A stretch of DNA of 64,000 nt from a virus: the IMG/VR virus record IMGVR_UViG_3300017927_000001. One strand, given 5' to 3'. Positions 17,586 through 57,245 of this stretch are shown here, in pieces (the first letter of the stretch is position 1; every line of letters starts with the position of its first letter). Position numbers and translations under genes: made by a program. Below the pieces are notes generated by a model, which was not told the origin of the DNA, made no database searches, and saw only the letters and a list, made by a program, of their open reading frames with translations.

Positions 17586-17785
17586 GCAAGTACACGAAGC
17601 CAGACCTCGTGGTACGGCTACGCGCCCCGCACATGCTGGCCCGCGCCGTTGAGAAGGGCCTGCGCATGGAGGCCGCTGCGGAGATCGAGAAGCTGCGCGA
17701 GCGAATCAGGGAACTCGAGCCTAAACCGTCCTGGGAGAAGACTGATGGGGTTCTTTCAAACCGAGGGGGCGGCGAAGTCCGCTAA
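17582..17785 (+). CDS. hypothetical protein (67 aa)
   Basis: ATGA-coupled. MSKYTKPDLVVRLRAPHMLARAVEKGLRMEAAAEIEKLRERIRELE. The 3' end overlaps the polA start by 41 nt. Confidence 0.45.
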   Translation: MSKYTKPDLVVRLRAPHMLARAVEKGLRMEAAAEIEKLRERIRELEPKPSWEKTDGVLSNRGGGEVR

Positions 17786-20366
17786 GAAGGCGAAGGCACG
17801 CATCCCCAAGAAGCCACGCCAGCAAAAGCAGGTGATCCCGATACTGGCGCAGTCCGGGCTGAGCTGCCGCGACTGCACGCTCGACAAGGAGCGGCTCAAG
17901 CACCCAAAGATGAAGCCCACGGGTGCTAAGTCCCCGCTGCTCTACATCCTCGGCGAAGCACCGGGGGAGACAGAGGACGAGCAGGGCATCCAGTTCATCG
18001 GCAAGGCCGGGGAGTACATCAGGGACTTCATACCCAAGGCCCTGAACAAGTACATCCGGTGGAACAACGTGCTGCGCTGCCGGCCACCGGAGAACCGCGC
18101 ACCCACCGAGCACGAGATGCGATGCTGTAGCCACTGGCAGCGCGAGGACATAGAGGAGTCGAAGCCTATGATCATCGCTGGCTTCGGCAACACGCCCCTC
18201 GAGTGGGCCATTGGCCGCAACGGCATCACACGCTGGCACGGGATGTTAGTGCCGGTACGCATCGGAACTCACGAGTGCTGGTATGCCCCCATGTGGCATC
18301 CGTCGTACGTCATGCGGATCAAGAACGCCGATGAGATAGGCCAGCCGACGTACAAGATGTATCGGTACGAGCTCGAGCGGGTGTTTGCGTTGATACAGAC
18401 CGTGCTCGATGGGGACGGAATAGACGTGCCGTGGATACCCACTCGAAACGAGTGCGATGAGGGCCTGCACGTTATTGACACTTGGATCGTGGGGGATGTT
18501 GAGCGTGCCCTGAACTCCATGAAGAAGTACCGGAACCAGTCCGTCGATCTCGAGACGACGCACTTGCGCCCGTACCACAAGGACGCGAAGATTCTCAGCA
18601 TCGCGTTCGGGGTGTGGGAGGAGAGCTACGCCATACCGCTGTTCCACCCGGAAGCAAAACGGTGGAAAGCTGAGGACCTCCTACGGGTAATCTCGCTTAT
18701 CCAGCTCTACCTGCTTCAAAGCGGGAACACGTTCTGGGCTCACAATCTCAAGTTTGAGCTCGAGTGGCTGTTCCACCAATTCGGTTCGGCGAAGTACCTG
18801 TACGACGTGAAGTGGGGCGATACGATGGCGCAGGCCCACATCCTGCACGACCAGCGCGAGAAGAGCCTCGAGGCGCGCAGCGTGGCGCTGATGGGCGTCG
18901 ATAACAAGGCGCTCGACAAGCTGGACAAGACCAATATGGCCGCGATGCCGCTGGAGAAGGTGTTGCGGTACAACGCACGCGACGTGAAGTTCACGGATCG
19001 GGTGCGGGAGATCCAAACGGACGAGATTGCTCGCCAAGGATTGCAGCGGCCCTACGAGGCCATGATCTCGAGAACCCCGACGCTGGTATTGGCCCAAGCC
19101 TACGGGCTCACACCCGACACGAAGTTTGCGGAAGCCAAGCATCGCGAGCTGACCCTTAAAGCCAACCTCATCACGAACAAGATCCAGAGGCTCGAAGAGG
19201 TAAGGCAGCACGTGAAGAAGACCGGCAAGCCGTTCAATCCGAACAGCCCGAAGCAGCTCCAGTCGGTGCTTCACATCACCGGCAGTACCGACGTGGATGC
19301 GCTGTCCCGATTGAAGAAGCCGCTGGCGAAGCTCGTGCTGGACCTGCGCGCGGTGACCAAGCTCGACGGCACCTACGTCAAGGGTTACTGCCCCTCGGAA
19401 GGCGCGGAGTACATCTACCCGGATGGCAAGATACACGCGAACTTCAACCACCTCGTGACCAGCACGGGCCGGCTTGCCAGCGACGACCCGAACCTGCAGA
19501 ACTTTCCAATCCGAACGCCCGAGGGCAAGCTCATCCGCAACCTGATAGCGGCCCCACCCGGTCAGACCATCGTAGCCATTGACTACGGGCAGATAGAGGC
19601 CCGCATCATTGCCATTGCCTCCGGGGATGTGAACCTCATCAAGGCCCTGTGGGAGCATTACGATATCCACATGGATTGGATCCTCAAGATCACTGGCAAG
19701 TTCCCGCAGCTTCTCGAACCTTACCGCATCCCGGAGAACAACACCGAGAAGAAGGTCATCAAGGCGTTCCGCCAGTATTTCAAGTCCGAGTGGACCTTCC
19801 CGTTGTTCTTCGGCAGCGAGCTTGACCCGGTAGCGGCGCGGTGGGACCTGCCGGCCCGCAAGCTGAAGCCGTTCTATGACGAGTTCTGGGAGCGGTACGC
19901 AGCGGTGAAGGCGTGGCAGGAAACGGTGATGCGCGGATATGGCCGGCACGGGTACGTTGAGACACTGACGGGTCGCCGGCGCTACGGGCCGCTGACGCAG
20001 AACGAGGCCATTAACCAGCCCATCCAGGGCACCGCCTCCGACATCGTGGTTGATGCGATGGAGCAGCTTGGAAAGATGTCGTACGAGCTCGAGAAGCCGC
20101 AGCTACAGCCGCGCATGAACATCCACGATGACTTGACCTTCGTGCTTCCGGAGAAGAGGCTCGAGAGCGAGTTGGAAATCATACTGCCCGTGATGTGCAA
20201 GCCCCGGTTCGACTGGATCAACGTTCCCATCACAGTCGAAGTGAAGACAGGAAAACGATGGGGAGAATTAGAGGAAGCGTTTACAGTTGAATCCACAGAG
20301 TTCGGATTCCCAAGGAATAAACATGAGCAGAAAAGTAACCATCCAAGAATCGCTCGAAAGGGCTGA
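17745..20366 (+). CDS. polA: DNA polymerase I (family A) with an N-terminal family-4 uracil-DNA-glycosylase-like domain and a 3'-5' exonuclease domain
   Basis: UDG-4 motifs: CRDCTL, ILGEAPGETEDEQGIQFIGKAG, VLRCRPPENRAPTEHEMRCC and MWHPSYVMR. Exo I: SVDLETT. Pol motif A: AIDYGQIEARIIA. Motif B region: KSEWTFPLFFG. Motif C: NIHDDLTF. Confidence 0.85.
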   Translation: MGFFQTEGAAKSAKKAKARIPKKPRQQKQVIPILAQSGLSCRDCTLDKERLKHPKMKPTGAKSPLLYILGEAPGETEDEQGIQFIGKAGEYIRDFIPKALNKYIRWNNVLRCRPPENRAPTEHEMRCCSHWQREDIEESKPMIIAGFGNTPLEWAIGRNGITRWHGMLVPVRIGTHECWYAPMWHPSYVMRIKNADEIGQPTYKMYRYELERVFALIQTVLDGDGIDVPWIPTRNECDEGLHVIDTWIVGDVERALNSMKKYRNQSVDLETTHLRPYHKDAKILSIAFGVWEESYAIPLFHPEAKRWKAEDLLRVISLIQLYLLQSGNTFWAHNLKFELEWLFHQFGSAKYLYDVKWGDTMAQAHILHDQREKSLEARSVALMGVDNKALDKLDKTNMAAMPLEKVLRYNARDVKFTDRVREIQTDEIARQGLQRPYEAMISRTPTLVLAQAYGLTPDTKFAEAKHRELTLKANLITNKIQRLEEVRQHVKKTGKPFNPNSPKQLQSVLHITGSTDVDALSRLKKPLAKLVLDLRAVTKLDGTYVKGYCPSEGAEYIYPDGKIHANFNHLVTSTGRLASDDPNLQNFPIRTPEGKLIRNLIAAPPGQTIVAIDYGQIEARIIAIASGDVNLIKALWEHYDIHMDWILKITGKFPQLLEPYRIPENNTEKKVIKAFRQYFKSEWTFPLFFGSELDPVAARWDLPARKLKPFYDEFWERYAAVKAWQETVMRGYGRHGYVETLTGRRRYGPLTQNEAINQPIQGTASDIVVDAMEQLGKMSYELEKPQLQPRMNIHDDLTFVLPEKRLESELEIILPVMCKPRFDWINVPITVEVKTGKRWGELEEAFTVESTEFGFPRNKHEQKSNHPRIARKG

Positions 20367-47056: not shown

Positions 47057-47535
47057 CACATCCCCACGTTCCAGGGGTCCTGGTACAGCCACGGGTAGGG
47101 CTCGATCTCCCGTGGGGTGTGCCTCGCGTAGCGCATCGTCCGGTACTGGGCCGTCGCCGCCCAGTATTCGGCCCCGTACTTCGTCTGCTGGTACCAAGCG
47201 GCGGCGCGTGGCTGATTGTTCCCCATGTCGGCCTGCACAGACACACTGCCTTCCGTCGCATTGCTGATGCGCCCGACCAGCGGTGAAGAAGGACTGCCGT
47301 TGAGGGGCGCGTTCAGCGCGGTGATGTGGGCAGTGAGCAGGTGAAGCAGGGTGTACCGCTGCCCTCCGACCGAAGAGTCGCAGATAGGGCTCATCGGCGT
47401 GTTGTCGCAGAGCATGGTGGCGCGGTTGAAGTAGCCCTGCGCCTGCTGCGAGGTGACGCTCGAAGAAAGCTCCGGGTAGGCCCCTTGAAAGAAGCCCCAG
47501 TCAAACGCGACGACGCCGGAGGGAACCGCGCTCAT
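47056..47535 (-). CDS. head-tail connector/adaptor protein (DUF4054-like)
   Basis: FDWGFFQGAYPELSS...YTLLHLLTAHITAL resembles the DUF4054 signature (F...fPEf ... l.AH.l.l). It lies downstream of the capsid gene. Confidence 0.55.
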   Translation of the reverse strand: MSAVPSGVVAFDWGFFQGAYPELSSSVTSQQAQGYFNRATMLCDNTPMSPICDSSVGGQRYTLLHLLTAHITALNAPLNGSPSSPLVGRISNATEGSVSVQADMGNNQPRAAAWYQQTKYGAEYWAATAQYRTMRYARHTPREIEPYPWLYQDPWNVGM

Positions 47536-47550
47536 GCCCGCTGCTCCGGG

Positions 47551-48072
47551 TTAAGCCGCTACGCGGTCGTCTTTGCCGTCGTACTTCTGGATGCCCTTCG
47601 GCAGCTTGTTTGGATCGAGCCGCTCGAGGCCAGACTTCAGCGTGGCACCCTTGTCTTTCGCTTCCGCTGCCGTGTTCGCTTCGCTGGTATGCGCGAAGAT
47701 GAGCCCGTTCTTGACCAGCATCGATTCCTGGTTCTGCTCGAGCCACAGTTCCCAGAAGTCTCTTGGGATACCGGGGGTCAGAGCAAAGCCCGCGATGATC
47801 TTGTGATCCGGGGCCTTGGTCTGTGGGTGCGCGAATCCGTTCAGCAGGAACCGCCGACCGAATTCGTTGTAGACCTTGGATTTCTTCCTGCCCCCGCCAA
47901 TCACGAACTCATCCACCTGTTGAGGCTCGAACACTCGGAGCCAGAACCCCGCCGGCAGCTTGCACCCGACCGTCACGGTGTCGGTGTTGTTCTGATTGCT
48001 CTTTTGCGCCTCGATGAGCTGCTGTTCTTTCCCTTTGACGTCCGGATTCTTGTTTCGGATGGCTGGCTTCAT
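47551..48072 (-). CDS. hypothetical structural protein (173 aa)
   Basis: The first gene after the major capsid gene. Good RBS context. Confidence 0.5.
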   Translation of the reverse strand: MKPAIRNKNPDVKGKEQQLIEAQKSNQNNTDTVTVGCKLPAGFWLRVFEPQQVDEFVIGGGRKKSKVYNEFGRRFLLNGFAHPQTKAPDHKIIAGFALTPGIPRDFWELWLEQNQESMLVKNGLIFAHTSEANTAAEAKDKGATLKSGLERLDPNKLPKGIQKYDGKDDRVAA

Positions 48073-48089
48073 CTCACTTCTCCGTTAGT

Positions 48090-48112
48090 GGAGCCCCGAC
48101 CATCGGGGCTCC
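48090..48112 (-). terminator. stem-loop downstream of the major capsid gene (attenuator/terminator candidate, no U-run)
   Basis: ggagcccc (48090-48097) pairs with ggggctcc (48105-48112), 7-nt loop. It lies in the 84-nt gap after the capsid stop. Confidence 0.35.
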
Positions 48113-48156
48113 GTCCCGTAGCTTCTCATGGGTCGTTGCGTGGCGTCTCTGGGTGG

Positions 48157-49224
48157 TTAGACTCCGATCATCTGGGCAATGGCGAACGGTTGGCGAACGA
48201 TGGCGCCCCACGTCCCTTGAGCCATCTTCTGCTTGTAGGACGACAGGTCGCGGATCACCGGGCCGGCGCGCAGCTTCTCGCTGAACGCCATGTATCCGGT
48301 CTCTTGCCCTTCGACGGTCTTCGCGATCAGCTGAACGATCTCGCCCGCTGCGGAACCTTGTGGGTTCTGCGCGGTCAGCGCCCCGTATTGCATGGCGGGG
48401 ATGACCGTAAGGTTGGGGTAGTTCGACTTCAGCTGCGTCTTCACGTTCACGTTGTAGGTGTTCGTGAAGTTCATCGCGGCAGACGAGTGCGGCGACATCG
48501 CCAGGATCATCTCGCTGTCCGCGTTGATGTTGCCGCTCGACTGGTTGATGAGCTGAGCGACCAGCGACAGAACATCCTGGTAGACCTCGAGGCCGGAAGC
48601 GTTCGGCGAGTTGCCGGAGAACCACGCGATCCCGCCCGCTGCCTTCGGTGCCGGGGCAATGTAGGCCGGCAGCGACGGGTCGTTCAGCAGCCCGTAGTTC
48701 TGCAAGCCCGCGACCCCGTAGAAGTAGGTCAGGTTCTGGAACTTGTTCAGGCTGACGACGCACGCCTGCTTCAGTTCCGCGGCCCAACCGATCTTCGCCA
48801 CGCCCGCACGAGCCATCTCCAGTTCGCCGTACTCCGCGATGATCTGGTAGAGGTAGTTCTCGCGTTGCGGGAAGTTCGTGTTGGCACCCGCACGGCCCGC
48901 TGTGCTGAAGTCGCCGTAGCTGGACACCTCCCCGGTGTGCTCCACGACTGGGAACGCAACGGCAATGTCTTCGAAGCTGCCCTTTCGGACCTCCCCGAAA
49001 ATGTCCACGGCGACGTTCTTCGCAGTCAGGATCCGCAGCAGTTCCGGGTCGAGGAACGTGACCAGGAACGAGGGGATGCCTGACTGTCCAACCGTCACGA
49101 GCGACGGCTGAGCATCCATTGCAAGTCCAAAGTTCGTCTTCCATCCTGGTTTCAGGAAGTCGACAGCACCTTCGAATGAGATGCCCCAGTCGCGTTCGAA
49201 TACTGCCAATGCAGGGTTACGCAT
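48157..49224 (-). CDS. major capsid protein (DUF2184-like)
   Basis: 355 aa. It follows the scaffold and decoration genes and is followed by a stem-loop. The overall sequence resembles the DUF2184 capsid family that accompanies DUF2213 scaffolds. Confidence 0.75.
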   Translation of the reverse strand: MRNPALAVFERDWGISFEGAVDFLKPGWKTNFGLAMDAQPSLVTVGQSGIPSFLVTFLDPELLRILTAKNVAVDIFGEVRKGSFEDIAVAFPVVEHTGEVSSYGDFSTAGRAGANTNFPQRENYLYQIIAEYGELEMARAGVAKIGWAAELKQACVVSLNKFQNLTYFYGVAGLQNYGLLNDPSLPAYIAPAPKAAGGIAWFSGNSPNASGLEVYQDVLSLVAQLINQSSGNINADSEMILAMSPHSSAAMNFTNTYNVNVKTQLKSNYPNLTVIPAMQYGALTAQNPQGSAAGEIVQLIAKTVEGQETGYMAFSEKLRAGPVIRDLSSYKQKMAQGTWGAIVRQPFAIAQMIGV

Positions 49225-49270
49225 TTTCTCGAGTCCTTATCTGTGAGTTGAGGGTCGGTTGCCGTTAGGA

Positions 49271-50437
49271 TCAACCGAGCGGCCAGCTTGACATCTTCAC
49301 CAGCTCGCCGGGTTGGCCGACCGACAACGCATAGAACTTGGTCTCGGTTGCAGCATTGGCGTTGATTGCCTGCGAGGTCATCGTCTGCCCTTGGTTCAGG
49401 TAGTACGTCCCCGCCCCGCCCGTGCCGGTGCCCAGTGCCGTGATGTAGGTGCCGGCATTGACACCCGATCCCGTCAGCAGGTCGCCGACCGCGTAGGTGC
49501 CGGCCACCGTGCCACCGATGGTCAGCACGCCTCCCGTTCCCGTGATGGACGTTGACGTGGCAGCGCCCATCGTGGTCGGCGCGAACACCGCCATCTTGTC
49601 GCCGTTCGTCTTGCCATCCGTGCCCGAGGCCAGACCGGCGACCGTCGTGCCCGTGGTGACGTTCGTGCCCGACAACACCTGACCCGGCAGGAACTGGCCC
49701 GTGATGGTCGTGGCGACCAGCAGGATGCCCCACAGCGGAGCGGTGATCGTGCTGGAGGCGACCGTCTGATTGACGCTGACCAGATAGGTGCCGGTCGAAC
49801 CCGTGGTTCCGCTCAGCTGCGAGAGGATGGTGGTCGCGGGATCGACTGGGTTCCCTGCGGTTCCGCCGGCGAGGACCATGCCGGGGAACAGTGCAACCCC
49901 CGCAGCCAGCGCCGATACCGTCAGCACCTGCCCCGAGATCGAGGCGGTCATCGAGATCAGCGTAATCGTGCCCGCGCTCGTGTTGTTGAGCGCGATGGTC
50001 GAGGCGGTGCTCGTCGCAGCCGAGGGCGGGGAACCCGTGGCCGCGAATGACACCAGACCGGTGCTGTTGTTCGCGTAGGCTTTCTGACCGATCGCGGAGG
50101 CGGTGGTTCCGTTGTTGATGACCCAGAACTCGCCCTCGTTGTAAAGCGTCACGCCCAGTCCGACGGGAATGACCTGCGTGTTGTCGGCCAGGAACTGCGT
50201 GATGACGGCGTTCATGTGCCGGCCCACGAAGCCGGTCGGGGCTAGACCGCCCGAATTGCCGACCTTCGTGTTCGTGAGCGTCGCATCCGCCCACGCAAAC
50301 GCGCCGACTGCGACACCGTTCGGCCCGGATACGAAAGCTCCCGGGCCGTTCACCACCGAAGCACGGGGATTCGCCGAGCAGAAGTCGCCCGCGACCCCGA
50401 CTGCCGGCACTACGTTTACTGCTTTGGGAAATGGCAT
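49271..50437 (-). CDS. head decoration/structural protein with three inserted Gly/Thr-rich modules
   Basis: It lies between the scaffold/protease and capsid genes. The N- and C-terminal parts (MPFPKAVNVVPAVGVAGDF... and ...KFYALSVGQPGELVKMSSW) flank three copies of the roughly 50-aa module. Confidence 0.55.
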   Translation of the reverse strand: MPFPKAVNVVPAVGVAGDFCSANPRASVVNGPGAFVSGPNGVAVGAFAWADATLTNTKVGNSGGLAPTGFVGRHMNAVITQFLADNTQVIPVGLGVTLYNEGEFWVINNGTTASAIGQKAYANNSTGLVSFAATGSPPSAATSTASTIALNNTSAGTITLISMTASISGQVLTVSALAAGVALFPGMVLAGGTAGNPVDPATTILSQLSGTTGSTGTYLVSVNQTVASSTITAPLWGILLVATTITGQFLPGQVLSGTNVTTGTTVAGLASGTDGKTNGDKMAVFAPTTMGAATSTSITGTGGVLTIGGTVAGTYAVGDLLTGSGVNAGTYITALGTGTGGAGTYYLNQGQTMTSQAINANAATETKFYALSVGQPGELVKMSSWPLG

Positions 50438-50481: not shown

Positions 50482-53268
50482 TCAGGCGTGACGAAGGCGC
50501 GCGGCGTCGGGGAACTGCTTGGCGAAGGCTTCCGGATCGTCCGGCGAGGCCGAGCTGTCGGAGGCCAGACGCAGATCCGCGCGGGGCTTCGGCAGGTGCT
50601 CCAGGATCGTTCGGAACGCGCTCGGGTGGACGTTCTTGGTCTTGACGCCCATGATCTTCAGGGCCTCCTTGTAAACGTCCTCGGCGCTGTCGAACGCCAT
50701 CGTCATCTTGCCGACGAGCGGCTGAACGAAGGTTTCAGCATCCGCGATCTCACGCATCCGGGCCACGGTGGCGTCGGTCGCGTTCTTGGTTGCCGCCTGT
50801 ACGGCTGCGGCAATGGCCGCGTCCATCGCGGGCTTCGTCACCATCTGCGGTTCCTCCTTCTTGACTGGCGCGGCGGGTTGCGCCGGACCTCCCGGGGGTT
50901 GATCGGCTGCCGGCTTCGCGGCGGGGGCTGCGGCTGCGGGGGCGGCAGGAGCTGCGGGATGCAGAGCCTTCAGCTTCTCCGCGATTGCTGCGCACAGTTC
51001 CGGAGGCATGTGCGCCTTGCAGATCTCAAGGATCTCCGCGAGCGGGTTGGGAGCCGCTGCGGCGGGCGCAGCCGGCGCGGCTGGCGCTGCCGGGTGGGTC
51101 GCGACGGCTCCCGGAATGTCCGTGTCCTTGCCTTCGGACTGGGCCAGCGCGTCGGCGGGATCCTCGACTGTGGTTTCGCCGTCGTCCTGCGCGATCTTGG
51201 CCTTCCCCTTGTCCAGACCGTTCAGCAGCTTGGTCAGCGCGGGGAATTCGTCCTGGGCCAGCTTGGATTTGAGGGCCGCGAGGATCTTCGGCTTCTCGGT
51301 GGACCAGTTATCGGAGGCCACGTTCTTGAGCAGGACCTTCAGCTCCTTGCCGGTCGGAGGCTTCGCATCCGCCGCGAGCTTGGGCTTCGCGGTTTTGAAG
51401 TAGGCGCTCAGCGCGCCCATCGCGAGCATCCCCTTGCGGGACAAGGCTTCTCGCTTTACGCTTGCTTCAGGCATCTTCGTTCCTTTCGGTTTTGAGTCTC
51501 CAACCACAACGTCAGGACCGGCGCGGCCGTCCGGCACTAGAGCAACGTGATTACCGCGAATGTTCCGCATGACCCCATCGTAGGGCTCGCCTTCGAAGGT
51601 TCCCGGAGTCATATCGGCTTGATAGTGGTAGGCGCAGGATAGTTGTTTCTTCTCCCCGGATTGGATGCCTGTGATTGCGTCCTTGCTCCAGAAGACAAGC
51701 GAGTTCCGCAGGTAAGGCGATTGGAATTCACAATCGGTCCCGGTGGAACCGATCACCAAGTCGGGCCGGTGCGCGTCTGCCGTCACCGGCACATGCTGAG
51801 AGAGGATGGGGAGGTTGTTGAAGGTGGAGGCTGCCTTCTCGAGTTCGGCAGGGTCCCTGAGCATTCGGTACTTCTTGCGCGGGTCGAGGCCCATCTCCTC
51901 CCCGCCATTGACCTCGAACCCGTAGTATTCGCAGATGTTCGACTTGCTGATGTTTGAGGAGTCGACGTGCAGCCGGCCATCCTGGTCAAAGCGCCGCAGA
52001 GACTTGAGATCGAAAGCGAGGGAGTCCTGCGCGTAGTCCGAGTATTCCCCGGATTCCCCATCAGCGTATTGCTTCACCCTGATATTTACATGGGTGACTT
52101 CCCCGCCCTTTGTTCCCTTTGTTGTGTTCCGACCAACAATTTGATACGTTGTACCACGAGGAAGAAGCACCTCGTCCTCTTCCTTCATACCTCTGTACTC
52201 TTTGCTCTTTGGCGCCCTCACGCCCCGCGCATTAATAGGAGTCTCTAGGTGCAGCACTAGACCACCACTGGAAAACTGAACCGTCTTTCCAGTCTTCGGG
52301 TGGGCCACATTGCCCCCAACCGAGGAAGTGAATCTGGAAGCTACTCCCTCCTTCGTTGAAGTTGCCGTGAACCCCGGATCAACGAACTCCTTGACCTTCT
52401 TGTTGAGGAGAAGCTGGCGACCGAAGTTTGATACTGGATCTACCCCGTAATGCAGGGTCCTTGCCCTCGACAGTCTCTGGCTGGTTTTTTCGTCGAGGAA
52501 TGAAACGGTTGCCTTCTCAGCCTTGGTGAGAGATCTACCATGACGAAGAGCAGAGGAGACGTGGGCTCCTTCGCCATCTTGGTAGGATTTCCATTGCTTT
52601 GCTTCTTCTGGGGAGGAGCCACCGCCTCCCCCCGAAGCGAACTCCCCTTCCTTGTTTCTTGGATGTTCTGACTCCACGAACTTGCCGGCGTCCTCTGCGA
52701 GATCCTTTCCCTCCTCTATGCTGTGGTGATCCGGGTTGAGTTCCGCGCTCTTGCCCTTCACAATCTCCTCGCACGTCTGGCGCACGCCCGGGAGCAGCGG
52801 TTCGGGGGGCTGATCCAGCGGAGCCCATATCCAGTCGGAGTGCTCCGACTCGTCCAGCTCCGGCTCGAACTCCTCATCCACCGCTTGCAGGAACGTGATG
52901 AAGTTCACGCCCTCGTCGCTGATGAAATCGGTAACGAGGATGAGTGGGGACTCGCTCTCGGGTATGTCCCCGACCTCCTCAATGGCCTCGCGCCGCGCAG
53001 TTTCGATGGGGCTTTCGTGTTCTTCGTGGTGCCCTCCAGGGAAGTCCCAGCTTCCTGGATGTCGTGCTGTGTGCGCCCGCTTGAGGAAGAGTGCCTTGCC
53101 GTCCTCCGTGACAAAGGCGATGCCGGCGCCTTTGAGCTTGATGTTCTTGTCTTCGCTGTAGCCGGCAGCGTGGGCCGCTGCCGCTTGCCTCTCAGCGCCG
53201 GCCCTATCGGGGTAGACCTTACCGTGGGTCCCCCATTGGTACCCTCCTTCGACTTTGCGGATGGGCAT
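50482..53268 (-). CDS. multidomain head protein: Nudix hydrolase + ADP-ribosyltransferase-like domain + DUF2213-type prohead protease/scaffold + Ala/Pro-rich scaffold tail
   Basis: Nudix box GGHHEEHESPIETARREAIEEVG (aa 78-100). ART-like segments KSYQDGEGAHVSSALRHG, FTATST and KEEDEVLLPRG (aa ~225-400). DUF2213-like segments LPILSQHVPVTADAH...RGNHVALVPDGRAG (aa ~420-590). HPAAPAAPAA repeats near the C-terminus. Confidence 0.8.
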   Translation of the reverse strand: MPIRKVEGGYQWGTHGKVYPDRAGAERQAAAAHAAGYSEDKNIKLKGAGIAFVTEDGKALFLKRAHTARHPGSWDFPGGHHEEHESPIETARREAIEEVGDIPESESPLILVTDFISDEGVNFITFLQAVDEEFEPELDESEHSDWIWAPLDQPPEPLLPGVRQTCEEIVKGKSAELNPDHHSIEEGKDLAEDAGKFVESEHPRNKEGEFASGGGGGSSPEEAKQWKSYQDGEGAHVSSALRHGRSLTKAEKATVSFLDEKTSQRLSRARTLHYGVDPVSNFGRQLLLNKKVKEFVDPGFTATSTKEGVASRFTSSVGGNVAHPKTGKTVQFSSGGLVLHLETPINARGVRAPKSKEYRGMKEEDEVLLPRGTTYQIVGRNTTKGTKGGEVTHVNIRVKQYADGESGEYSDYAQDSLAFDLKSLRRFDQDGRLHVDSSNISKSNICEYYGFEVNGGEEMGLDPRKKYRMLRDPAELEKAASTFNNLPILSQHVPVTADAHRPDLVIGSTGTDCEFQSPYLRNSLVFWSKDAITGIQSGEKKQLSCAYHYQADMTPGTFEGEPYDGVMRNIRGNHVALVPDGRAGPDVVVGDSKPKGTKMPEASVKREALSRKGMLAMGALSAYFKTAKPKLAADAKPPTGKELKVLLKNVASDNWSTEKPKILAALKSKLAQDEFPALTKLLNGLDKGKAKIAQDDGETTVEDPADALAQSEGKDTDIPGAVATHPAAPAAPAAPAAAAPNPLAEILEICKAHMPPELCAAIAEKLKALHPAAPAAPAAAAPAAKPAADQPPGGPAQPAAPVKKEEPQMVTKPAMDAAIAAAVQAATKNATDATVARMREIADAETFVQPLVGKMTMAFDSAEDVYKEALKIMGVKTKNVHPSAFRTILEHLPKPRADLRLASDSSASPDDPEAFAKQFPDAARLRHA

Positions 53269-53283
53269 CCTACAGCTCCAAGG

Positions 53284-53643
53284 TCACAGAATGTTAGTGA
53301 CGTTGAACACCGTGGGGTTTCCGCTGGACGTGCAGGTGACGGAGTCTCCCGGACGTAAAAGGAAAGTGCCCGCTGTCTGCCCTGTGACCCCGCCTGCACT
53401 GAGCGAGATTGCAGATACGGTGCCCCCGCTGATGGTCACTGCTTGAAGGTACGGTCCCGGGTTCGTGTACGGCTGGCCGGTGCCCGGATATCCAGTCGCT
53501 GCGGTCGCGCTGTTCTGATTCGGCCGCGCGTTCGCATTGGTATATGCCGTGAGCGCGTTTGCAAGGGACTGGATAGCGGCAGCAGTCGCTCCCATGTCCC
53601 CCTGAGCAATGGACGCTAACTGCTGCTGCGTCAAGTTGGGCAT
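53284..53643 (-). CDS. hypothetical protein, paralog A of a tandem pair (119 aa)
   Basis: The C-terminus TISGGTVSAISLSAGGVTGQTAGTFLLRPGDSVTCTSSGNPTVFNVTNIL is nearly identical to that of the neighbouring gene. Confidence 0.6.
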   Translation of the reverse strand: MPNLTQQQLASIAQGDMGATAAAIQSLANALTAYTNANARPNQNSATAATGYPGTGQPYTNPGPYLQAVTISGGTVSAISLSAGGVTGQTAGTFLLRPGDSVTCTSSGNPTVFNVTNIL

Positions 53644-53653
53644 GATCTCTACC

Positions 53654-53992
53654 TCAGATCATGTTGGTGACGTTGAACACCGTGGGATTGCCGGACGAGG
53701 TGCAGGTGATTGAGTCTCCCGGCGCCAGAAGGAACTGTCCGGATGTGAGCCCGGTCACACCTCCACGCGACAGCGTTATCACGGTGACCGTGCCCCCGCT
53801 GATGGTGACCGTTTGGAGGAACGAGGTGTTGTTCGTGTATGCGGTTCCGCTGCCGGGATAGGAGACGGCGGTCGCGGCGGAACTCTGAGCCCCGCGCAAT
53901 TGTTGCGCCAGCACGTTCGCGAGTACGTCAAAGTCTCCGGCCGCGATTGCGTTGATCATCTGGGCCGTGAGTGCGGGATTGAGCGTTGACAT
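53654..53992 (-). CDS. hypothetical protein, paralog B of a tandem pair (112 aa)
   Basis: C-terminus TISGGTVTVITLSRGGVTGLTSGQFLLAPGDSITCTSSGNPTVFNVTNMI. DNA identity to paralog A is visible at 53287-53350 versus 53660-53722. Confidence 0.6.
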   Translation of the reverse strand: MSTLNPALTAQMINAIAAGDFDVLANVLAQQLRGAQSSAATAVSYPGSGTAYTNNTSFLQTVTISGGTVTVITLSRGGVTGLTSGQFLLAPGDSITCTSSGNPTVFNVTNMI

Positions 53993-54517: not shown

Positions 54518-54823
54518 CTACTGCTCCTCCATTGGAAGATCGCCTAGGAACCAGCCTAGTGTCTGCGCGTTGCGTCCACTTTCAGTTTTGATCTCGTCCT
54601 CTGACGCATCGCGATACTCCCAAGTGCCATCCGGGTACACCTCAACGAGCTGCCCGGTACCGGGACGCCCGCACAGGAAGCCGGTGCCTTCCGCCTGCAC
54701 GGTGCTGAACCCTTTTCGAACTGCCATGTTCACGGTCTGGTCCAGGATGGCTTTGTTCGCCGCTTCGACGGAGGCGAACAATCGAACACCGTCCTCCTCG
54801 TCAGTCACAAACTTGTTCTTCAC
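54518..54823 (-). CDS. hypothetical acidic protein (101 aa), ATGA-coupled to the MuF-ART gene
   Basis: Its start overlaps the stop of the ART-bearing gene. A role as an immunity or partner protein is only a positional inference. Confidence 0.55.
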   Translation of the reverse strand: MKNKFVTDEEDGVRLFASVEAANKAILDQTVNMAVRKGFSTVQAEGTGFLCGRPGTGQLVEVYPDGTWEYRDASEDEIKTESGRNAQTLGWFLGDLPMEEQ

Positions 54824-56904
54824 AGCACTACCTCCACATGAAGCCGCTTCACATGCCCGCTATTCGGGTCCTTGTCGACGGCAGTGATCTTGAACTTGGT
54901 GCCGTCTTGGAGCAGGGTCTCATCCTCGTGCTTATGATTGCTGATCGGCTGCAATCGAATCGCCTTGGTGCCGGGGGGCGCTGTGATGTCCATCACAAGG
55001 CTGCCCCATGTCGTGTTCGGTTTATGGCTGGTTGAGATGAAGCCCTTGTCCACGAGAACATGCCCCGGCTGAATGTCGTCTATTCCAGAAAGCCCGGCCT
55101 CCTTTGCCATCTTCCCTAATGCACTGCCACTGATGCCCCGATAGGCACGCATCGCTTTCTTGATCGGTGATATTGAGGCAAACGCCTTTTGGATATTCAA
55201 GATGTGCTTCTGGATATACTTGTCCACGGGTGGAGGCGGGTGGCCTCCACGCATCGCCGTGTTCATGTACTTGTATCCGGCTCCCGTGTAGGACTTGAGC
55301 GAGCTGATGATGTCCTCAGGCAGCGCGTGAGGCATCACAGCGCCCTTAGCGTGGAACTTGATCTTGCCCTTCTCCACAGGCTCGGTAGGCTGGTCCGCAG
55401 TCTTCTTCTGTTTGTAGCCCTTGATAACTCCAGCCTCTATCGCCTTGATGAGGTTCAGCGCGCCTTCTCCTGTTGTGATATTCTCCCACACCCCATCAAT
55501 CTTCTTCGAGATGCGCCACGTCCCGGTATCCGGCTTGTAGCTGACTTTTGAGCTTCCAGTTTTGAAGTAATGGATATCTCCGTAGACGCCCTCCGGGTCT
55601 ATGCCCTTGGCAGCAAGTCCCTTCTTGACGATCTCAAGCTTCTGCTCACTTGATAACTCCGCTTCCACTGGAGTAGGATCGGGCGGGGGCGGAGCGGCAT
55701 ACTTCTCGACGAACTTCTGAAGCTGCTCTGTCTCCGTAGAAGCCGGTTTTGCTTTCGGTCCCTTGGGAACCTTGGGAGCCTTGATGCCGTAGAACTTCTC
55801 CCAGCGATGGAAGTACAACTCCGCGGACGCCTTGTTGATGCCGGCTGCTACAGCTTGAGCGACGACCTCCTTCGTTGTGGCATAGCCCTCCTTCGAATTG
55901 CTGATTGTGTCCGCAATCTTCCACACGCTGGCACCCACGGTACCTTCCGTGGGCTTGGTATGCCCTCCGGAGATGGAGACGAACTTACCCTCTGCATCGC
56001 GCGGGTGCTTCCATTCTATCCAGGTGCCCTTGTCCATCGCGAGGCGCGGGCGCGCGATGCCTCGAGGACGGAAGTCGAGGCCCGGGATGACTGGCTTGCT
56101 CACGCACCGGCAGCCCGGCTCCGTACCGGGCCACACCCACTTCTTCTCGAGGTATGCACCCTGCGAGAGCTTAAACCGCCTGCCGCTGAAGGCAACGTGC
56201 TCCGGGCGCGGGTGCTTGCCGGCCCCGCTGTGCAACCACACGTTCTCCGTGATTCCGAGGGAAGTCTGGCGAGTGCGCGAGATCATTGCGGTGGCCTTAT
56301 TGTTCTGGTCCAGCGCAATGAACGAGGCACGTCTCCAAGTGCGCGCGAAGAAGGACTTGTCGGACTCTCCGGGCTTCTGACCCATGCCAATGCGCGCTAG
56401 ATCAACCTTCGGCCCCAACATGGTCACGAGGGAGGCAAGGTCCCGACCTGCCGTTACGGAGCGCATCACCGCGCCCTCTACCTGCGTGAAGTATTGGCTC
56501 GAGATAGACTTGATGAGAGAGACGTTTTCTCCGATGGTCGCCTGCAGAACGTCGTTGACCTCGCGGGATAGGTTGAACCGGACCGCGATGCCGTGTTTCT
56601 TCAGGATAGACTTCAGAGCCCCGTCGGCCCGCTTGTGCGCCGCGATGGCGAAGTGCTTGGCAAGGTCCACAGCGAGATCGTCGAAGCGCTTCTGCCAGCG
56701 GCCCGCCAGCTCCTGGAGCAGCTTGCGCAGCGTAGACGCGGGGGAAGCATCCATTGCCATCTCGGGGGGCTTGGCCCGGTAGGCAGCTTGGAGCCAGTAG
56801 ATGACAGAGTTGTGCATCTGGGCGATCATCGTCGCCAGTCGCAGGCGATAGTCCGCCTGTATTCCCTCGTTGGGGCGTATCGCCGCTGCGACTCGAGGCT
56901 TCAC
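54820..56904 (-). CDS. head morphogenesis protein (Mu gpF / SPP1 gp7 family) fused to a C-terminal ADP-ribosyltransferase domain
   Basis: MuF-like N-terminus (aa 1-280, e.g. NVWLHSGAGKHPRPEHVAFSGRRF...GCRCV). KHPRDAEGKF motif. C-terminal ART with the full R-S-ExE set: AYRGIS, GFISTSH, HEDETLL (aa ~530-694). Confidence 0.85.
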   Translation of the reverse strand: MKPRVAAAIRPNEGIQADYRLRLATMIAQMHNSVIYWLQAAYRAKPPEMAMDASPASTLRKLLQELAGRWQKRFDDLAVDLAKHFAIAAHKRADGALKSILKKHGIAVRFNLSREVNDVLQATIGENVSLIKSISSQYFTQVEGAVMRSVTAGRDLASLVTMLGPKVDLARIGMGQKPGESDKSFFARTWRRASFIALDQNNKATAMISRTRQTSLGITENVWLHSGAGKHPRPEHVAFSGRRFKLSQGAYLEKKWVWPGTEPGCRCVSKPVIPGLDFRPRGIARPRLAMDKGTWIEWKHPRDAEGKFVSISGGHTKPTEGTVGASVWKIADTISNSKEGYATTKEVVAQAVAAGINKASAELYFHRWEKFYGIKAPKVPKGPKAKPASTETEQLQKFVEKYAAPPPPDPTPVEAELSSEQKLEIVKKGLAAKGIDPEGVYGDIHYFKTGSSKVSYKPDTGTWRISKKIDGVWENITTGEGALNLIKAIEAGVIKGYKQKKTADQPTEPVEKGKIKFHAKGAVMPHALPEDIISSLKSYTGAGYKYMNTAMRGGHPPPPVDKYIQKHILNIQKAFASISPIKKAMRAYRGISGSALGKMAKEAGLSGIDDIQPGHVLVDKGFISTSHKPNTTWGSLVMDITAPPGTKAIRLQPISNHKHEDETLLQDGTKFKITAVDKDPNSGHVKRLHVEVVL

Positions 56905-57245
56905 GCAGTTACCTTGTCCGTGAGGTTGAGGAGAACAACCGCGTCCTTATTGTTCCCGGCCGAGTCCGTGAACTGCACATGAAGCGTGCAGATTATCCCG
57001 GCAAGATTCGGGGGGATGACTCCACCACTGATGTGAACCTGAACTACCGTGCCGGGTGGAGCTATAGTTCCATCCGGGTAGATGTTCTGGAGCGTATTGA
57101 TAATCGGGGAACCAAACTGCACCCCAACATCTGGGTCGCACAGTATCTGGTTCACCTGCGCAATGGTAGCCCCCGACGGCAGCAGATCCATGCAATTGAT
57201 GTCGTAGGGGCAGGAATCGTAGGTCCGCTTTTCCAGGCTGCTCAT
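56901..57245 (-). CDS. hypothetical protein (114 aa)
   Basis: ATGA-coupled at both ends. Confidence 0.5.
   Translation of the reverse strand: MSSLEKRTYDSCPYDINCMDLLPSGATIAQVNQILCDPDVGVQFGSPIINTLQNIYPDGTIAPPGTVVQVHISGGVIPPNLAGIICTLHVQFTDSAGNNKDAVVLLNLTDKVTA

Follow-up and report, generated by a model that had tools for sequence, protein, structure and literature searches.

A phage head-module gene joining Nudix and ART-like domains to a predicted maturation protease and a scaffold tail

The DNA analysed here, a window of 64,000 nucleotides from the IMG/VR virus record IMGVR_UViG_3300017927_000001, carries on its minus strand a gene coding for a 928-aa protein in which a Nudix hydrolase domain and an ADP-ribosyltransferase (ART)-like domain precede a DUF2213 protease/scaffold part. 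With moderate confidence, we interpret this product as a polyvalent head-assembly protein, in which a protease/scaffold of the Pa193 gp24 type acts as carrier for two enzyme cargo domains placed near the N terminus, the cargo being proposed to be packaged, cleaved and ejected. The features of the gene and of its downstream neighbours are as follows.

50482..53268, minus strand: whole gene, 928-aa open reading frame (ORF) with an ATG start and no interruption, stop codon at 50482-50484; domain order leader, Nudix, HPR/Gly linker, ART-like, DUF2213 (Pa193_gp24), scaffold tail
53158..53268, minus strand: leader, aa 1-37, MPIRKVEGGYQWGTHGKVYPDRAGAERQAAAAHAAGY, matched by phrog_31267 over aa 1-34
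52759..53130, minus strand: Nudix hydrolase domain, aa 47-170, from Pfam and PDB sequence matches
52969-53037, minus strand: Nudix box GGHHEEHESPIETARREAIEEVG, aa 78-100, read from the sequence
52618..52668, minus strand: HPR/Gly linker, EHPRNKEGEF at aa 201-210, then a Gly run up to aa 217, start of a cassette of low GC content at third codon positions (GC3)
52069..52626, minus strand: VIP2/C3-type ART-fold domain, aa 215-400, from sequence and structure searches
aa 227-244 of the 928-aa protein: KSYQDGEGAHVSSALRHG
52444-52455, minus strand: LHYG, aa 272-275, with Tyr274 at the Arg position
52354-52371, minus strand: GFTATS (FTATST being aa 300-305), with Ala at the first Ser of STS
52153-52185, minus strand: KEEDEVLLPRG, aa 362-372, in which ExE is E364-D365-E366
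51484..52008, minus strand: DUF2213 / Pa193_gp24 domain, aa 421-595, with a predicted prohead protease fold of the assemblin/T4 gp21-like kind
51472..51486, minus strand: candidate internal start at Met599, with the ATG at 51472-51474, AAAGGAA at 51480-51486 and a 5-nt spacer
50485..51474, minus strand: Ala/Pro/Lys-rich scaffold tail, aa 599-928, with (AAP)n linkers and helical segments
49271..50437, minus strand: decoration/minor capsid gene, XM1_gp53-like, 44 nt downstream of the 928-aa ORF
48157..49224, minus strand: major capsid gene, downstream of the decoration gene, from Pfam and PHROG scans

Since the decoration and major capsid genes lie directly downstream (48157..50437), the ORF is placed within the head module. 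An earlier note on this DNA, made from the letters alone, had located the gene directly upstream of these two genes and had proposed an N-terminal Nudix domain with an intact box, a domain with ART hallmarks whose first catalytic motif, LHYG, was atypical, a C-terminal part of the DUF2213 protease/scaffold type and an Ala/Pro/Lys-rich tail. The coordinates and the gene order agree with this description, and all the motifs quoted in it could be read from the sequence. The profile and structure searches that it had suggested for each domain, reported below, upheld the Nudix and ART folds.

The Nudix part was recognized by Pfam NUDIX (PF00293) between aa 47 and 158 with an E value of 8.6e-17 and 61.8 bits, for a cut-off of 21.1 bits. 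The Nudix box is complete (G79, E85, R93, E94, E97, E98 and G100 are present) and its sole departure from GX5EX7REUXEEXGU is the final hydrophobic position, occupied by Asp. Among PDB sequences this part matched MutT/Nudix proteins, NUDT15 and ADPRase with E values down to 5e-7. The closest annotated phage proteins, found by tblastn among GenBank phages, were T4-type NudE with 40% identity over aa 38-130.

For the ART-like domain, Pfam ADPrib_exo_Tox covered the C-terminal half only (aa 292-387; E 7e-4, 19.4 bits, under the gathering threshold of 23.4 bits). A word-indexed homology search with the ART region alone (aa 200-415) returned nothing at E <= 1e-3, and phmmer of the ART region against PDB sequences gave a chance GTPase match only. 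When the same region was submitted to an exhaustive phmmer search against 1.84 billion representative proteins, 32 matches were obtained at E <= 1e-3, and their joint alignment yielded the canonical consensus Y..N..LR.G / VYRG / GFxSTS / ExExLLPRGT. Nine of the ten matches that were scanned exceed the Pfam ADPrib_exo_Tox threshold and several are fused to MuF; the closest one, P0049, gave no Pfam hit. A profile made from 17 retrieved homologues and both ART domains of the window matched Vip2 (9e-22), C3larvin, Certhrax, CDTa, iota Ia, ExoT/S and C3 (to 1e-11). The AlphaFold model of aa 215-415, which was built on an alignment of ARTs and has to be read with this caveat, reached a predicted local distance difference test score (pLDDT) of 86 and a predicted template-modelling (TM) score of 0.82. 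Among its best 50 PDB matches are C3larvin, CDTa, Plx2A, iota Ia, C3bot, C2-I, Certhrax and ExoS, with E values from 5e-10 to 9e-8 and TM scores of about 0.6, and its top viral matches comprise, among others, mycobacteriophage 'VIP2' proteins, MuF-ART fusions and T4-type RNA polymerase ADP-ribosylases. The phmmer homologues, the profile match to Vip2 and the fold search agree, and the ART fold and homology of aa 215-400 are considered as established.

The relatives of the whole protein were then used to describe the cargo part. The full-length search gave 48 proteins at E <= 1e-10, 47 of them with DUF2213, and a Nudix box is found N-terminal to DUF2213 in 33 of these 47 homologues. Nothing lies between the two domains in about 20 of the 33, and an insert of at least 120 aa is present in the other 13. 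The architectures, from N to C terminus, include the following.

P0009: Nudix, canonical ART (E 2e-19), DUF2213
P0017: ART, Nudix, DUF2213
P0001: Nudix, GNAT, DUF2213
P0045: PBECR1 nuclease in place of Nudix, DUF2213
P0011: Nudix, HPR motif, a domain of about 170 aa without known family, DUF2213

Judged from these sequences, the usual cargo is the Nudix domain, and the content of the middle slot can be exchanged, which argues against a dedicated Nudix-ART 'pair'. The NAD/ADP-ribose effector pair put forward in the earlier note is therefore weak, the other Nudix homologues having a canonical ART, a GNAT or unknown inserts where a middle domain exists at all, and a specific functional pairing of Nudix and ART was rejected for a slot that is variable and often empty. 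In the relatives, the gene follows those for terminase, portal and MuF and precedes those for the cement protein and the major capsid protein, after which E217-like neck and tail genes come, and no further Pfam-annotated peptidase was detected among the head genes of their loci. In the window, Nudix, ART and peptidase domains occur together in one head-module ORF, which is the multi-effector arrangement of polyvalent proteins (Iyer et al. 2017). By tblastn against 50,697 GenBank phage records, no isolate covered more than about one third of the query; the DUF2213 part matched 743 records and the Nudix part mainly T4-type NudE. The record MW202455 was rejected as a fusion, its match to aa 297-606 spanning two adjacent genes (the MuF C terminus and DUF2213).

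Two side observations concern these relatives. P0011 (L005, 2273-4813) has 36% identity over 96% of the query, and its slot domain (aa ~225-390, TFHGTT...YEGDRG...), for which Pfam gave no significant match, might represent a further type of effector. Among the ART-search matches, P0053, P0057, P0050, P0059, P0061 and P0069 contain repeated ART arrays: P0053 is a MuF protein with four Pfam-confirmed ART stretches and P0057 has four as well, and the library search showed 3-5 ART-like stretches in array proteins of 1300-2300 aa, or as many as 7 when thresholds were permissive.

The composition of the gene singles out the ART segment. Its GC content is 0.529 and its GC3 0.543 (aa 215-400), against a GC3 of 0.73-0.81 in the Nudix, DUF2213 and tail parts, and the GC3 trough extends over aa ~181-390, so that the segment is AT-richer than the rest of the gene, as had been noticed by eye. 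An acquisition at the level of the domain, also suggested earlier, is further in agreement with the location of P0049, the closest ART relative (44% identity, E 1.6e-32), in another head-module protein. P0049 is a 712-aa non-scaffold protein whose gene lies between terminase and portal in a Pa193/E217-like phage, and the Pa193_gp24 homologue of that phage (515 aa) has no Pfam-detectable effector domain. In both phages the variant ART segment is low in GC3 (0.54 in the window and 0.49 in P0049, for 0.67-0.86 in the surroundings), and in both it is preceded by HPRxxxGxF and then a Gly run. P0049 reads M-H-Y-G at the first motif, E-S-E at the last and P-M-S for STS, and on these sequences the Tyr274-type ART and P0049 together look like a rare variant subfamily; the H-Y-G/E-x-E variant has these 2 members only among the 1.84 billion representative proteins.

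The HPR motif is shared with a second effector-bearing head protein of the same phage, a MuF-ART fusion.

54820..56904, minus strand: MuF-ART fusion, 694 aa, with a MuF head domain, an HPR motif at 55981-56007 and an ART
54823-55332, minus strand: canonical ART of this fusion, aa 525-694, with R-S-E as YRG / STS / EDE
52639-52665 and 55981-56007, minus strand: HPR motif copies of the window, in the 928-aa protein and in the MuF-ART protein, respectively

The MuF-ART protein is matched by Pfam ADPrib_exo_Tox (E 2.5e-19) and by PHROG 324, head morphogenesis (E 1.5e-63). Its HPR stretch aligns with that of the 928-aa protein at a BLASTP E value of 1e-7 and, apart from these two proteins, HPRxxxGxF has a single, off-frame match in the window. 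Elsewhere, HPRxxxGx[FW], usually followed by a Gly/Ser run, was observed ahead of effector domains in many retrieved proteins, P0049, P0048, P0055 and P0070 among them, sometimes twice per protein. The motif behaves like an inter-domain punctuation and may be a processing or docking site; no description of it was found in PMC5512222 and PMC9503650. From the GC3 trough, the shared linker and the position of P0049, we infer that the ART cassette, including the HPR linker, is a recently acquired, exchangeable module.

The carrier part is matched over the whole length of Pfam DUF2213 (PF09979), aa 425-592 covering profile positions 1-167 of 167 with an E value of 6.4e-47 and 160.1 bits (cut-off 22). 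PHROG 2229, 'head maturation protease', matches aa 414-926 (E 8e-119), and Pa193 gp24 (PDB 9B40) matches the DUF2213 part with an E value of 7e-10, or 2.6e-14 with a profile. The AlphaFold model of aa 405-620 had a pLDDT of 77.6, and 17 of its 19 best Foldseek matches in PDB are herpesvirus proteases (from Epstein-Barr virus, EBV; Kaposi's sarcoma-associated herpesvirus, KSHV; pseudorabies virus, PRV; varicella-zoster virus, VZV; and cytomegalovirus, CMV) or T4 gp21, ranks 13 and 17 being MCE-domain proteins. His492, Ser544 and His574 are invariant in an alignment of 20 DUF2213 sequences and are retained in Pa193 gp24; His-Ser-His is the residue order of assemblin. That DUF2213 is the maturation protease is moderately probable, and this reading agrees with the PHROG label. 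It had been suggested that a maturation protease would release the N-terminal domains: the release is kept in our interpretation, whereas a separate protease is not needed because the DUF2213 domain itself looks protease-like.

The tail that follows contains 23% Ala, 11% Pro and 10% Lys, and aligns with the tails of P0009 and P0011. At its first residue, Met599, a Met is found at the equivalent place in all of the 39 C-terminally complete homologues, 6-26 residues past the protease domain in an otherwise variable linker, and it is usually followed by an LSRKA...GAL element. A purine-rich, Shine-Dalgarno-like element lies 5-10 nt ahead of the ATG of this conserved Met in the 5 loci of the comparison (the window and 4 others). 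A start at Met599, giving a nested scaffold product of 330 aa, is therefore probable on sequence grounds. Such a conserved internal start suggests that most of the scaffold is made without cargo and that the full-length form is a minority, and the dose implied by the earlier proposal of a covalent linkage to the scaffold, with both enzymes on every scaffold copy, is probably overstated.

At the other end of the protein, the leader appears to belong to the protease/scaffold carrier and not to the cargo. A 73%-identical copy of it (MPIRKVEGGYQWGTHGKVYP...AAHAAGY, phrog_31267) was observed on L012, a contig of a Desulfobulbia metagenome-assembled genome (3989-5449), where a 486-aa protein with a Lys/Glu/Ala-rich charged tail begins with it, beside a 264-aa ORF. 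By eye only, the 486-aa protein was taken as a protease/scaffold and the preceding 264-aa ORF as MuF-like. These observations point to a leader conserved among head protease/scaffold proteins, behind which the cargo would have been inserted in the 928-aa protein. With aa 1-415 as query, the leader motif was the only match in GTDB genomes and no relatives were detected in IMG/VR.

The mechanism which we propose for this polyvalent protein is as follows. The C-terminal scaffold part would co-assemble with the capsid protein and bring the whole polypeptide into the procapsid, the in-frame start at Met599 providing the bulk of the scaffold free of cargo and the full-length form being a minority passenger, as for lambda C/Nu3 and herpesvirus UL26/UL26.5. 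DUF2213, with His492, Ser544 and His574, would then cut the scaffold and the linkers, perhaps in the HPR/Gly punctuation or close to it, and free the Nudix and ART domains which, once folded, should be too large to leave through the capsid pores. They would be ejected with the DNA and be active ahead of any phage gene expression; the Nudix domain would hydrolyse ADP-ribose, NAD-derived or other NDP-X molecules, and for the ART-like domain we envisage either the modification of a host target by an altered chemistry or a role as non-catalytic binding module. Loading of the 928-aa protein into the capsid is plausible by analogy, because its DUF2213 homologue, Pa193 gp24, was detected in mature virions by liquid chromatography-mass spectrometry (PMC11456595). 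In that phage, the inner five-fold vertices carry a helix-turn-helix pentamer made of gp24 residues 286-326 (PMC11456595), and the scaffold tail of the 928-aa protein corresponds to the part of gp24 which binds there.

Several points weigh against this interpretation. Packaging, cleavage and ejection of the 928-aa protein are predicted steps. The Foldseek scores of the DUF2213 model are weak (E 1.6e-3 to 0.5, TM 0.2-0.54, with a probability up to 1.0), a comparison of the DUF2213 profile with the T4 gp21 sequence by hhalign did not reach significance, and Pa193 gp24 was described as a putative scaffolding protein only (PMC11456595). For the Nudix part, no NCBIfam equivalog was reached at its cut-off, the top score being 33.8 bits for 245. 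Met809 is preceded by a stronger AGGAGG than Met599 and, because Lys, Glu and Gly codons make purine runs anyway, the start at Met599 is a candidate only. Lastly, Tyr274 of the ART-like domain falls in a column occupied by Arg in all 17 other aligned members ([YFH]-R-G), and the S-T-S motif has its first Ser replaced by Ala, Thr-Ser being retained. Both residues, the Arg and the first Ser, are near-universal in the family; an ART lacking them may have lost or changed its activity, and the sequence thus leaves the domain as possibly non-catalytic.

This last point leads to the explanation closest to our own, from which it differs in the role of the middle domain only: the ART-like domain would be a catalytically dead binding or adaptor module, and the Nudix domain the sole enzymatic effector. 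We regard it as a real possibility while leaning somewhat against it. Parallels are the inactive N-terminal ART-like domain of binary toxins and the XopAI-type pseudo-ARTs. Besides the two substitutions, it is favoured by the Pfam score under the gathering threshold and by the canonical R-S-E ART carried on MuF in the same phage, by which catalytic ART activity would be supplied elsewhere. Moreover, in the ART profile search the Vip2 chains showed a second, weak ART-like stretch, which we take to be the inactive adaptor domain of binary toxins. On the other hand, E364-D365-E366 is retained together with the VLLPRGT that follows it in the family consensus, as is the N-terminal Y...LR helix motif, and the fold is predicted at high confidence. 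Finally, the only close relative, P0049, has the same H-Y-G and E-x-E, which suggests a constrained variant site and not free decay.

A more far-reaching proposal combines three claims: that H-Y-G/A-T-S/E-x-E defines an active new ART subclass that handles NAD in an altered way or acts on another target; that HPRxxxGxF-Gly is a release or loading signal read by the DUF2213 protease; and that Pa193/E217-like phages follow a modular 'cargo grammar', loading exchangeable effectors on protease/scaffold, MuF or portal-adjacent carriers. Taken jointly, these claims seem to us improbable.

In another explanation, the N-terminal enzymes would act in the producing cell or in the procapsid, for instance in nucleotide clean-up or in the regulation of assembly, and would never be delivered, being degraded or expelled with the scaffold fragments after the maturation cleavage. 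It is general knowledge that scaffold and protease fragments exit the capsid in well-studied systems such as HK97, and residues 286-326 are the only part of gp24 resolved inside the Pa193 capsid (PMC11456595). However, folded domains of 15-25 kDa cannot pass the capsid pores unless they are degraded, and the presence of gp24 in mature Pa193 virions (PMC11456595) also speaks against such a loss. The slot holds effector types typical of injected arrays, namely ART, GNAT and the PBECR1 nuclease of P0045, and the HPR-plus-ART module is also found on MuF and on a portal-adjacent protein, which fits cargo delivery better than assembly. We therefore judge a role restricted to the producing cell or procapsid to be unlikely.

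That the fusion results from a frameshift, a missed stop or a chimeric assembly joining separate Nudix, ART and scaffold genes is hardly credible, since the sole point in its favour, the compositional break at the ART segment, is opposed by an ORF that runs without interruption, by a GC3 that returns to the level of the gene on both sides of the cassette inside one reading frame, by an identical 2787-nt gene on an independently assembled contig (L007), and by dozens of homologous fusions from ENA, JGI and Logan, among which the 923-aa P0009 has the same three-domain order on ENA and JGI contigs. Neither a frameshift nor a stop splitting off the N-terminal part, a possibility raised in the earlier note, was present in the ORF; a frameshift or chimeric origin was rejected, and the 928-aa fusion is not an assembly artefact. 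Although L007 contains the identical gene, the cluster table gave no exact match when searched for the 928-aa protein.

The polyvalent, virion-delivered effector interpretation has precedents. Such proteins were defined by Iyer, Burroughs, Anand, de Souza and Aravind in 2017, with assemblin-like peptidases always at the C termini and with packaging and injection implied (PMC5512222). A Nudix domain fused to a capsid-processing peptidase was described by the Aravind group in 2022, packaging and injection being again implied (PMC9503650). Both papers are computational and provide no experiments. The concept and the Nudix-peptidase fusion are thus already known from computational work, and the architecture cannot be called undescribed, as had been believed at first, effector arrays ending in an assemblin-like peptidase (PMC5512222) and the Nudix-peptidase fusion (PMC9503650) having been published. 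The 928-aa protein resembles the polyvalent proteins of PMC5512222 by its several unrelated effector domains in one polypeptide, its late/head gene setting, its predicted packaging and injection and its capsid-maturation-type peptidase C-terminal to the effectors; it differs from them in having a DUF2213/Pa193_gp24 peptidase followed by a 330-aa scaffold tail instead of a terminal peptidase, and an ART of VIP2/C3 type. With the fusion presented in PMC9503650 it shares a Nudix domain nearest to T4 NudE on a head protein of a contractile-tailed phage, read there as packaged, injected and acting against NAD- or ADP-ribose-derived signals; unlike here, the text of that paper contains no Nudix-ART-peptidase triple fusion.

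The MuF 'polymorphic toxins' (Zhang et al. 2012, PMC3482391) are similar in that a head structural domain carries exchangeable effector cassettes, and the window phage has its own MuF-ART (54820-56904) with the same HPR linker motif; in the MuF fusions, however, the carrier is MuF and the effector C-terminal, whereas in the 928-aa protein the carrier is the protease/scaffold and the effectors are N-terminal. Pa193 gp24 (PDB 9B40, PF09979) has a homologous DUF2213, a gene ahead of the decoration and capsid genes and a scaffold-like tail, but it is a protein of 478 aa which begins with DUF2213 and is without cargo, and no protease role was proposed for it.

A protease domain followed by an in-frame scaffold is also found in lambda C/Nu3, Mu I/Z, P2 O and herpesvirus UL26/UL26.5. 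In these systems, an internal start yields abundant scaffold alone and the full-length product is minor; in the 928-aa gene, by contrast, the internal start is deduced from the conserved Met and the Shine-Dalgarno-like sequences. We know of no classical nested protease/scaffold system with enzymatic cargo upstream of the protease. T4 Alt is, like the ART of the 928-aa protein, a member of the R-S-E Alt/VIP2 fold class, and it is carried in the head and ejected with the DNA (summarised in PMC5512222). Alt is, however, a separate protein, not fused to a protease/scaffold, with a canonical R-S-E, the R and S of which are Tyr and Ala in the 928-aa protein. A short N-terminal sequence targets Alt to the capsid, and Alt is trimmed by gp21.

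The locus extends a known theme and does not introduce a new principle. What is new is a VIP2-type ART with Tyr and Ala for Arg and Ser, the way in which this ART behaves as a cassette along with its HPR punctuation, a protease assignment of DUF2213/Pa193_gp24 at the level of the fold, and the conserved candidate internal start. Proteins delivered with the phage DNA act ahead of phage gene expression and are therefore a first line against host immunity based on NAD+ and nucleotide signals. The use of a maturation protease/scaffold as carrier of exchangeable enzyme cassettes is predicted from genomics only, and the locus offers a compact test case with two carriers in one phage, MuF with a canonical ART and the protease/scaffold with Nudix and a variant ART. 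The shared HPR linker could be a processing site, and the probable nested scaffold start would set the dose of cargo. If correct, this would explain how cargo is loaded and released, and would provide a starting point for engineering phages to deliver proteins of choice.

Other features of the window were recorded. Between the MuF-ART and protease/scaffold genes, two tandem paralogous small genes on the minus strand (53284-53643 and 53654-53992) code for proteins of 119 and 112 aa which have a common C-terminal block, TISGGTV..I.LS.GGVTG.T.G.FLL.PGDS.TCTSSGNPTVFNVTN, and no Pfam hit. Two large genes lie directly upstream of MuF-ART on the minus strand (57242-62252), where the relatives have the portal: one codes for an 890-aa Ser/Thr-rich repeat protein without family match, and the other for a 778-aa protein with apiosidase-like glycoside hydrolase and collagen-binding-like domains, which looks like a fibre or depolymerase. 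Neither a portal nor a terminase was recognized among the window proteins scanned. On the plus strand, a 585-aa ORF (47326-49083) runs opposite the major capsid gene and the head genes next to it; the ORF is Arg/Leu/Val-rich with a GC3 of 0.59, and is almost certainly a shadow ORF of a GC-rich region. Also on the plus strand, a 905-aa family A DNA polymerase (17649-20366) has an N-terminal uracil-DNA-glycosylase-superfamily domain and a 3'-5' exonuclease domain and, together with the DnaB-like and SNF2-like helicases and the SMC/AAA_23-like ATPase encoded elsewhere in the window, indicates a phage with its own replication module.

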